Under the pieces are notes generated by a model. It worked only from the letters and a program-made list of their open reading frames with translations. It did no database searches and had not been told where the DNA came from. From a virus: a DNA stretch of 17,495 nt. Made by a program: the position numbers and the translations under genes. The stretch is from UHGV virus genome UHGV-0117107, one strand, 5' to 3'. This document shows positions 10,035-10,631 of this stretch, piece by piece. Each line of letters starts with the position of its first letter. Position 1 is the first letter of the stretch.

Positions 10035-10631
10035 CTATGGTGTTGATGGATTAAGACTTTCAGCGATTTTAGCGTCTATGTATGAATGTATTTCAGCTAT
10101 ATCCGCTTCCGTCCAATAATCAGTACCTCTGACAGGTGTCTTCCCATCAGTACCAGGATCTCCTTTTGGTCCAGCATCACCAGTATCACCTTTTGGTCCC
10201 TGAACACCCTGTTCACCTTGAGGTCCGGTTAATCCTGTATCTCCCTTTGGACCCTGAATACCTTGTTCACCTTGAGGTCCAGTAGCTCCGGTATCACCTT
10301 TTGGTCCCTGGATACCCTGTTCACCTTTCGGGCCTGTAGCTCCGGTATCACCTTTCGGACCTTTAAGACTAGCTAACCATTCAGTCTCGCTTCCTTCGAA
10401 ACCAGTAGAAAGCGCTACTTGATAAGCAGAATCACCTGGATCTCCTTTTTCACCAGGAGGGCCAGGAGTGGTTGAACCAGTTCCTCCGTTAGTAATGAGC
10501 TCGCATAATTCCCAAAGCAATTCTTCAGCTCTAGACTGAGGTCTCGGCAATCCTTCAGTACCTTTCTGTAAGATAGTATTTTTCATATATTCTTCAAATC
10601 TACTATCCGGTATGTATGTTTCATCGATCAT
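10035..10631 (-). CDS. Collagen-like (Gly-X-Y repeat) protein, 198 aa
   Basis: Translation contains an uninterrupted Gly-X-Y tract GPKGDTGATGPKGEQGIQGPKGDTGATGPQGEQGIQGPKGDTGLTGPQGEQGVQGPKGDTGDAGPKGDPGTDG plus a shorter block GPPGEKGDPGD, flanked by non-collagen N- and C-terminal segments. ATG preceded by AGAGGTGACAAA; stop overlaps the portal RBS. Confidence 0.85.
   Translation of the reverse strand: MIDETYIPDSRFEEYMKNTILQKGTEGLPRPQSRAEELLWELCELITNGGTGSTTPGPPGEKGDPGDSAYQVALSTGFEGSETEWLASLKGPKGDTGATGPKGEQGIQGPKGDTGATGPQGEQGIQGPKGDTGLTGPQGEQGVQGPKGDTGDAGPKGDPGTDGKTPVRGTDYWTEADIAEIHSYIDAKIAESLNPSTP
10183..10370 (-). repeat. Imperfect 54-bp tandem repeat, about 3.5 copies, encoding 18-aa collagen-like units
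   Basis: Visible in sequence: units beginning GTATCACCTTTTGGTCCCTG... at ~10183, ~10237, ~10291 and a partial copy at ~10345, each encoding GPKGDTGATGP(K/Q)GEQG(I/V)Q on the minus strand. Confidence 0.8.

Follow-up and report, generated by a model that had tools for sequence, protein, structure and literature searches.

The 17,495-nt stretch of viral DNA analysed here (UHGV virus genome UHGV-0117107, hereafter the window) carries, between the genes for the large terminase (TerL) and the portal, a gene for a collagen-like protein of 198 amino acids (aa). Its Gly-X-Y rod differs greatly in length among relatives that share near-invariant ends, and this very wide range between near-identical genomes is one of the new elements of the finding. 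Judging from the genes, we give roughly an even chance to the reading that the protein is a non-essential homotrimeric accessory virion fibre, which would make it a headless version of a modular fibre family, devoid of a receptor-binding head. The gene and the protein are laid out as follows.

10035..10631, minus strand: coding sequence of the collagen-like protein, ATG start, TAG stop, 198 aa; same protein on 9 contigs.
10482..10631, minus strand: N-terminal adaptor domain (N-domain), residues 1-50, from alignment, phmmer and low-confidence AlphaFold2 (AF2) helices.
10428..10463, minus strand: short Gly-X-Y tract of 4 triplets, G57-S68, read from the translation.
10362..10430, minus strand: helical interruption motif SAYQVALSTGFEGSETEWLASLK (the SAYQ motif), residues 68-90, separating both collagen tracts, from alignment.
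10137..10361, minus strand: main collagen tract of 25 unbroken Gly-X-Y triplets, G91-T165 (75 residues), from translation and Pfam.
10183..10355, no strand given: imperfect tandem array with a 54-bp (18-aa) unit, 3.2 copies and a 27-bp sub-period, from Tandem Repeats Finder.
10038..10136, minus strand: C-terminal cap PVRGTDYWTEADIAEIHSYIDAKIAESLNPSTP, residues 166-198, with an amphipathic helix at 175-193, from alignment and AF2.

The main tract bears out the first-pass annotation of this DNA, which had called a collagen-like protein with more than 70 Gly-X-Y residues, and it matches Pfam Collagen (PF01391) with E=1.9e-11 and 44 bits, above the gathering threshold of 27.2 bits. Among 5.8 billion protein clusters searched, about 64 proved to be full-length homologues, 128-198 aa long, and in the family alignment near-invariant N-terminal, SAYQ and C-terminal blocks flank a gap-ridden middle. 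The ratio of nonsynonymous to synonymous divergence (dN/dS) for the N-domain, the SAYQ motif and the cap is 0.04-0.14 (Nei-Gojobori, 99 non-collagen codons), at synonymous divergence from 0.08 up to saturation. Both ends of the protein are thus under strong purifying selection. Because the exact 198-aa protein recurs on 9 independent contigs from metagenomes (one of 96.5 kb), about 65 clusters keep frame and register, and dN/dS is low, the gene can be taken as a genuine coding gene and no chance open reading frame (ORF). A scan of 185,579 species genomes with the family peptide pattern found no relatives.

Copy number across the relatives is far from invariant, in line with the earlier claim that the array can change length. 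Counted between the SLKG and DGKTP motifs, by which measure the window protein has 24 triplets, the main tract ranges from 1 (P0063) to 24 triplets, with Gly at every third residue, in register, in 65/65 family sequences; the window's tract is the longest among these 65. The length comparators are all short-read metagenome assemblies. The closest relatives form a length series of 144, 161, 179-180 and 198 aa, the step of 18 aa corresponding to one 54-bp unit, and intermediates of the series differ by 9 or 3 aa. In one genome nearly identical to the window (L240; nucleotide identity of 95.7% in TerL, 98.4% in the Sequestin gene and 98.0% in the portal), the collagen gene is shorter by exactly 162 bp (3 x 54), and in another (L241, portal 97.7% identical at the nucleotide level) it is shorter by 81 bp. 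Both indels are in frame and within the array, with junctions at the repeated GPKG-coding motif GG(A/C)CC(A/G)AAAGG. The array itself has 84% matches and no indels (Tandem Repeats Finder, score 227), with a second period of 27 bp over 10158-10355, and a repeat search found three 108-nt copies at 54-nt spacing (10144-10359). The first-pass annotation had the 54-bp period right but slightly overstated the copy number (3.5, here 3.2) and the end of the array (10370, here 10355). Given units that are only 84% alike, slippage and recombination at short GPKG-coding homologies are equally plausible causes of array change.

Tandem repeats can collapse or expand in short-read assembly, and the length differences could be artefacts of this kind and not biology, given that every comparison sequence comes from a metagenome assembly and that two other repeat-bearing genes also show in-frame indels between the window and L005, which are 99.6-99.9% identical. 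We consider this very improbable: units that are 84% identical are largely resolvable by k-mers, the 198-aa form is found exactly on 9 contigs from different samples and a 154-aa form (P0033) on 43, and all 65 variants keep frame and register while their tracts differ in composition and not in copy number alone.

Two P.SR.E..L half-motifs make up the N-domain, a Gly-rich linker comes after it, and 21 of the first 50 alignment columns are invariant. The window protein carries the invariant residues P8, E13, Y15, G24, L28, P29, P31, R34, L38 and L42. A phmmer search with residues 1-56 found an N-terminal match in 53 representative proteins of 77-607 aa (E<=1e-3), along with two giant proteins matched over short internal stretches. 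Among 50 N-domain proteins scanned, the C-terminal partners are BspA-type leucine-rich repeats (LRRs; LRR_5) in 15, DUF285 in 4, collagen in 4, the phage tail-tip domain PF24243 (Phage_tail_C) in 2 and Sel1/TPR repeats in 1. These associations make the N-domain a reusable adaptor module. A scan of IMG/VR with the N-domain alignment gave one contig only, which was already known, and nothing was found in the literature on BspA-LRR virion proteins of gut phages.

Three of the N-domain fusions lie in the same genomic slot as the collagen gene. In L170, whose TerL is 90% identical, the slot protein (836-2584) begins with an N-domain, SAYQ and collagen stretch of 133 aa, 82% identical to that of the window protein, and then extends into a 450-aa domain with a match to PHROG 5302 ('tail protein'). 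This domain is 54% identical to a protein of the Faecalibacterium phage FP_Epona annotated as 'BPP-1-like major tropism determinant' (Mtd; L246 6923-8170), the gene for which follows baseplate and tail-collar-fibre genes and precedes a reverse transcriptase. The slot may thus sometimes hold the target of a diversity-generating retroelement (DGR); the window contains no reverse transcriptase or DGR. In L171 the order is TerL, an N-domain protein with a tail-tip domain, three more genes and the portal, and L173 has a pair of N-domain genes, one of them encoding LRRs, directly upstream of the portal. In L174 an N-domain protein occurs in another module, beside a second collagen protein and a 635-aa protein.

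The SAYQ motif has the consensus SAYQ..GF.G.E.EWL.SLKG, with invariant residues S68, A69, Y70, A73, G77, F78, G80, E82, W85, S88 and L89. Together with the collagen tract, it is the part of the protein that resembles annotated tail-fibre and minor-tail proteins in PHROGs and GenBank: tblastn matches to annotated phage tail fibres begin at residue 68, and matches to PHROGs 819, 5073, 6320, 1806 and others (E 7e-22 to 3e-10) cover only residues ~50-185, leaving the termini unmatched. The cap has the consensus G.DG.TP.RG.DYWT..D...I..YID.., with invariant or near-invariant columns, and ends many otherwise unrelated collagen-containing phage-like proteins. Searches of Pfam (E<=10) and NCBIfam with the N-domain, SAYQ motif and cap gave no family, including no Phage_fiber_2, and a PDB profile search returned collagens only. 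The termini had been described as unrecognised, which is true of these two databases but not of the family as a whole, where they are recurrent modules and the N-domain heads more than 50 representative proteins. Two AF2 monomer models, of the window protein (predicted local distance difference test score (pLDDT) 41.3; collagen tract 23-35) and of the nearly collagen-free P0063 (45.8), agree at low confidence on helices at 11-23, 34-47, 69-75, 82-88 and 175-193. Separately, the same genomes encode a second collagen protein with a near-identical SAYQ motif. In L007 (3475-5894) this is a 185-aa collagen-like protein with the near-identical motif S.YQVAVDNGFKGTEQEWLASLKG, followed by a 621-aa protein and located between HNH and connector genes; a second collagen gene of this type may have donated or received the SAYQ-collagen module by recombination.

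The slot that holds the collagen gene is bounded and shared as follows.

10985..12718, minus strand: large terminase TerL, the upstream boundary of the slot.
10650..10895, minus strand: homologue of Sequestin (PF21825), 81 aa, E=2.4e-20, between TerL and the collagen gene.
8749..10020, minus strand: portal, the downstream boundary, beginning 14 nt past the collagen gene stop.

The location between TerL and portal agrees with the first-pass annotation, which had called the position unusual; it is less so than stated, being a variable accessory site in these phages with precedents in SPP1 and RhynO. In all family members examined the collagen gene follows TerL, with or without Sequestin between them, and precedes the portal. 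Across about 150 related loci whose TerL is 74-90% identical, the terL-portal gap ranges from 18 bp to 2.8 kb; DUF7211 paralogues are present in 99 and Sequestin in 22, and the slot is empty in some tens. In the nearest GenBank phage record, MT835495, TerL, Sequestin, DUF7211 and portal are present while the collagen gene is absent. Because the slot is often empty or otherwise filled, and MT835495 lacks the gene, the collagen gene is a dispensable accessory gene of one sub-lineage. Every gene in the window is on the minus strand; 18 nt separate the Sequestin gene from the collagen gene, and a ribosome-binding site, GAGGTGA, can be read 5 nt upstream of the collagen gene start. No promoter-like or terminator-like sites were found beside the gene on the coding strand, and given this and the spacings of 18 and 14 nt to its neighbours, it is likely co-transcribed within a late operon. 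Between the portal and capsid genes lies an 88-aa ORF (8439-8705, minus strand), which is present in 9/12 loci with an N-domain gene vs 5/180 related loci without one, a difference confounded by shared ancestry; it could be a docking partner or a mere lineage marker. It has no Pfam match, and a PHROG scan gave no functional annotation for this ORF or for the slot neighbours in L171, L173, L174 and L007.

As a system the collagen-like family is nothing new: it belongs to a type of phage fibre already familiar. SPP1 gp12 is a non-essential, trimeric, collagen-like protein of 64 aa that binds hexon centres of the capsid; its gene is in the head module, and SPP1 has moron ORFs 3-5 between terL and portal. 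The likeness is that of a small, non-essential protein with a Gly-X-Y centre and helical ends, encoded in the head/packaging block of a siphovirus of a Gram-positive host, and the window protein shares this architecture: it has 198 aa, helices predicted at both ends and a gene that is absent from most relatives and adjoins the portal. Unlike it, gp12 has 8 triplets, a 15-aa basic N-terminus and no SAYQ interruption, and its gene lies between scaffold and major capsid protein (MCP) genes instead of between terL and portal. Capsid binding has been shown for gp12, whereas the window protein is known here from its gene. Homology to gp12 was considered and rejected: the BLASTP alignment is driven by Gly-X-Y, and the similarity in the C-terminal helix is gone once collagen is removed, with none at E<=100. 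We therefore regard the resemblance as architectural and not as evidence of homology.

The EPclA and EPclB proteins, collagen-like tail fibres of E. coli O157 prophages, have alleles whose collagen lengths differ in multiples of three residues, and the C-terminal domain of EPclA trimerises and re-nucleates the phage collagen helix (Ghosh et al. 2012, PMC3368898). They share with the window protein an N-terminal domain, one or two collagen tracts split by a small module and a C-terminal trimerisation domain, a role that the cap would fill here. The EPcl domains PfN (PF08400), Pf2 (PF03406) and PfC (PF06820) are, however, absent from the window protein (Pfam on the whole protein and termini, E<=10), which also has no PCoil region, is much smaller and belongs to another host group and genomic position. 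Another comparison is with the collagen-like minor tail or tail fibre proteins of cluster A mycobacteriophages such as RhynO gp4, which have a SAYQ-type motif with collagen and 43-63% identity from residue 68. The RhynO gene order is HNH, TerS, hypothetical, collagen fibre, ..., TerL, portal, placing the fibre gene between terS and terL, near the packaging genes and far from the tail block. These fibres differ in being about 390 aa long, in their N- and C-terminal domains and in lying upstream of terL, and the similarity is confined to the collagen module. The FP_Epona 'Mtd-like' tip, whose 54% identical counterpart is joined to the same stalk in L170, is wholly missing from the window protein. 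The collagen-like adhesins Scl1/Scl2 of streptococci and Lcl of Legionella resemble it in their bacterial-type collagen, charged and rich in Gln/Thr, with no hydroxyproline and with repeat-number polymorphism; the Scl/Lcl NCBIfam models match the collagen part at 54-61 bits, against cut-offs of 325-500, a similarity of composition only, and the window protein lacks their signal peptide, LPXTG anchor and V domain.

An accessory fibre seems the most economical reading because the protein combines a conserved adaptor, an unconstrained rod and a small cap, and because the adaptor's other partners are adhesin or receptor-binding domains. The N-terminal helical domain of ~50 aa would dock the protein to a conserved virion component, and the two Gly-X-Y tracts, short and long, would form a rod together with the helical SAYQ knot between them. 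With a rise of 0.286 nm per residue, the rod, if triple-helical, would measure about 21 nm in the window protein and 1-2 nm in the shortest relative, P0063. One end would be free, since length varies freely while the ends stay conserved, and the C-terminal amphipathic helix would cap that end and probably nucleate trimerisation and triple-helix folding, a role that we propose by analogy with the C-terminal domain of EPclA. Rod length would be free of selection and would drift fast as units of 9, 27 and 54 bp are gained or lost in frame, whether GPKG-coding repeats recombine or slip. Elsewhere in the family, the same adaptor is followed by a receptor-binding or adhesin domain. Because the N-domain has tail-type partners, we slightly prefer docking at the tail or neck, as in a tail fibre, to docking at the capsid.

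Several observations weigh against an accessory fibre. The slot is otherwise filled by non-structural or uncharacterised accessory genes (Sequestin, DUF7211), and the tract is followed by only a 33-aa helical cap and no distal receptor-binding domain, so that a role in adsorption is not evident. Among the partners of the N-domain, Sel1/TPR repeats would be atypical fibre tips, and since LRR proteins are usually monomers, a trimer does not follow from the adaptor. A check of the L170 long form against PDB sequences did not confirm its Mtd link, for which the grounds are the depositor's annotation and the gene context in FP_Epona. In 50,697 GenBank phage records, tblastn found no match to either of two N-domain variants or to the cap, so that these parts have no tie to a characterised virion protein. 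The AF2 monomers are of a quality usable for secondary structure only and give no fold support for the termini. What the sequences show is the collagen tract, the conserved ends, the length polymorphism, the dispensability of the gene and the modularity of the adaptor; trimer formation, virion attachment, the docking site and the role of the cap are what we infer.

The rod might instead project from the head, as a capsid decoration spike of the SPP1 gp12 type, with trimers added at hexamer centres or near the portal vertex after expansion. The gene's place in the head-morphogenesis block, directly before the portal, fits such a spike, as do the free variation in length, the co-occurrence of the 88-aa portal-MCP ORF with N-domain loci and the parallel with gp12, likewise small, non-essential and trimeric, with a helix-flanked collagen centre and a gene among head genes. 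We nevertheless hold a spike to be unlikely, though it deserves serious consideration: similarity to gp12 is undetectable beyond Gly-X-Y, and the caps alone give no alignment; the 15-aa basic N-terminus of gp12 contrasts with a 50-aa domain here, and gp12 has no SAYQ motif; the tail-tip and Mtd-like (by the depositor's label) partners of the N-domain are modules of the tail-fibre type; and the association with the 88-aa ORF, besides being confounded by ancestry, fails in L002 and L172. On a broader and also unlikely interpretation, the N-domain would be a universal plug-in adaptor and the terL-portal junction a cassette-exchange site that mounts interchangeable surface modules on one virion docking point. 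The modules seen are LRR adhesins of the BspA type, hypervariable receptor binders resembling Mtd, tail-tip domains and collagen rods on their own, and the collagen-only form would be a length-tunable whisker or spacer that modulates adsorption or gut adherence.

A position in an accessory-gene hot spot would also suit a moron whose product acts in or on the host cell and not in the virion, possibly in counter-defence with the adjacent Sequestin sponge. Sequestin is a phage sponge family recently shown to sequester the Thoeris signal 3'cADPR, so the direct neighbour belongs to a family with an experimentally established activity, and one sequence, P0044, is a read-through Sequestin-collagen fusion. 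That fusion, however, is known from a single 1.5-kb contig and looks like the loss of a stop codon. The two genes are separable both ways, the collagen gene occurring without Sequestin in L241 and L002 and Sequestin without the collagen gene in L001 and L012, and on these grounds we rejected a Sequestin-collagen functional unit. The partners of the N-domain are fibre or adhesin modules, and we know of no anti-defence protein that uses a collagen triple helix; a moron protein of this kind is accordingly quite improbable in our view. It is hardly credible that the gene is a decaying, non-functional leftover of a longer tail-fibre gene after loss of the receptor-binding domain, although a close relative, L170, has such a long form in the same slot with the same first 133 residues. 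Strong purifying selection on both ends excludes a decaying gene fragment, the low dN/dS at synonymous divergence reaching saturation largely refuting this idea; in addition, none of the 65 clusters (0/65) has a frameshift, and the cap is conserved with many invariant residues and is no random tail but a widespread terminal module of other collagen proteins.

Collagen-like phage fibres, EPcl length polymorphism, gp12-like capsid accessories, fibre genes among packaging genes and terL-portal morons were already known. The new points, beside the range in length, are a family that had no annotation, with three modules so far uncatalogued (N-adaptor, SAYQ knot and C-cap), its headless architecture and the modular use of the adaptor in a swap-prone slot. 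A dark-matter gene that recurs in abundant Clostridia phages of the human gut thereby acquires an identity, and three modules missing from Pfam are defined. By tying the adaptor to LRR, Mtd-like and tail-tip domains, the analysis points to a testable docking domain that could be useful for protein display, and rods of 1-25 triplets between identical ends offer a natural series for the study of bacterial collagen folding and stability.

Prophages related by their TerL occur in cultured gut Clostridia, among them Clostridium leptum, [Ruminococcus] torques, Hungatella hathewayi and Enterocloster lavalensis; the collagen gene is present at none of these prophage loci. With these prophages and a lysin (2819-4237, minus strand) that combines GH25, CHAP and 2 x CW_7, the host is probably a Gram-positive member of the gut Clostridia. 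The gene for this lysin is flanked by those for the tail assembly chaperone (4824-5237) and the tape measure (starting at 2429), an unusual place for an endolysin, and its product has 472 aa in the window vs 522 aa in L005, with the indel around 2963-3093. The prohead protease-major capsid fusion gene (6654-8399, minus strand) likewise varies, with a product of 581 aa in the window against 645 aa in L005, which is otherwise 99.9% identical, and 619-645 aa elsewhere among the relatives; the change is an in-frame 192 bp in a repetitive acidic linker, around 7741-7869. Upstream of TerL, four tandem DUF7211 paralogues of 181, 352, 378 and 190 aa (12762-16125, minus strand) have unrelated bodies and share only a ~25-aa N-terminal motif, ELYHHG(V/I)KGMKWGVRRY; as a tag encoded near packaging genes, it resembles a putative capsid-targeting signal. 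Upstream of these genes, in turn, a head-tail connector gene (Phage_connect_2; 16115-16480, minus strand) lies apart from the other head-tail joining genes and adjoins those for an HNH endonuclease (16498-16941) and a 114-aa protein (16904-17248).

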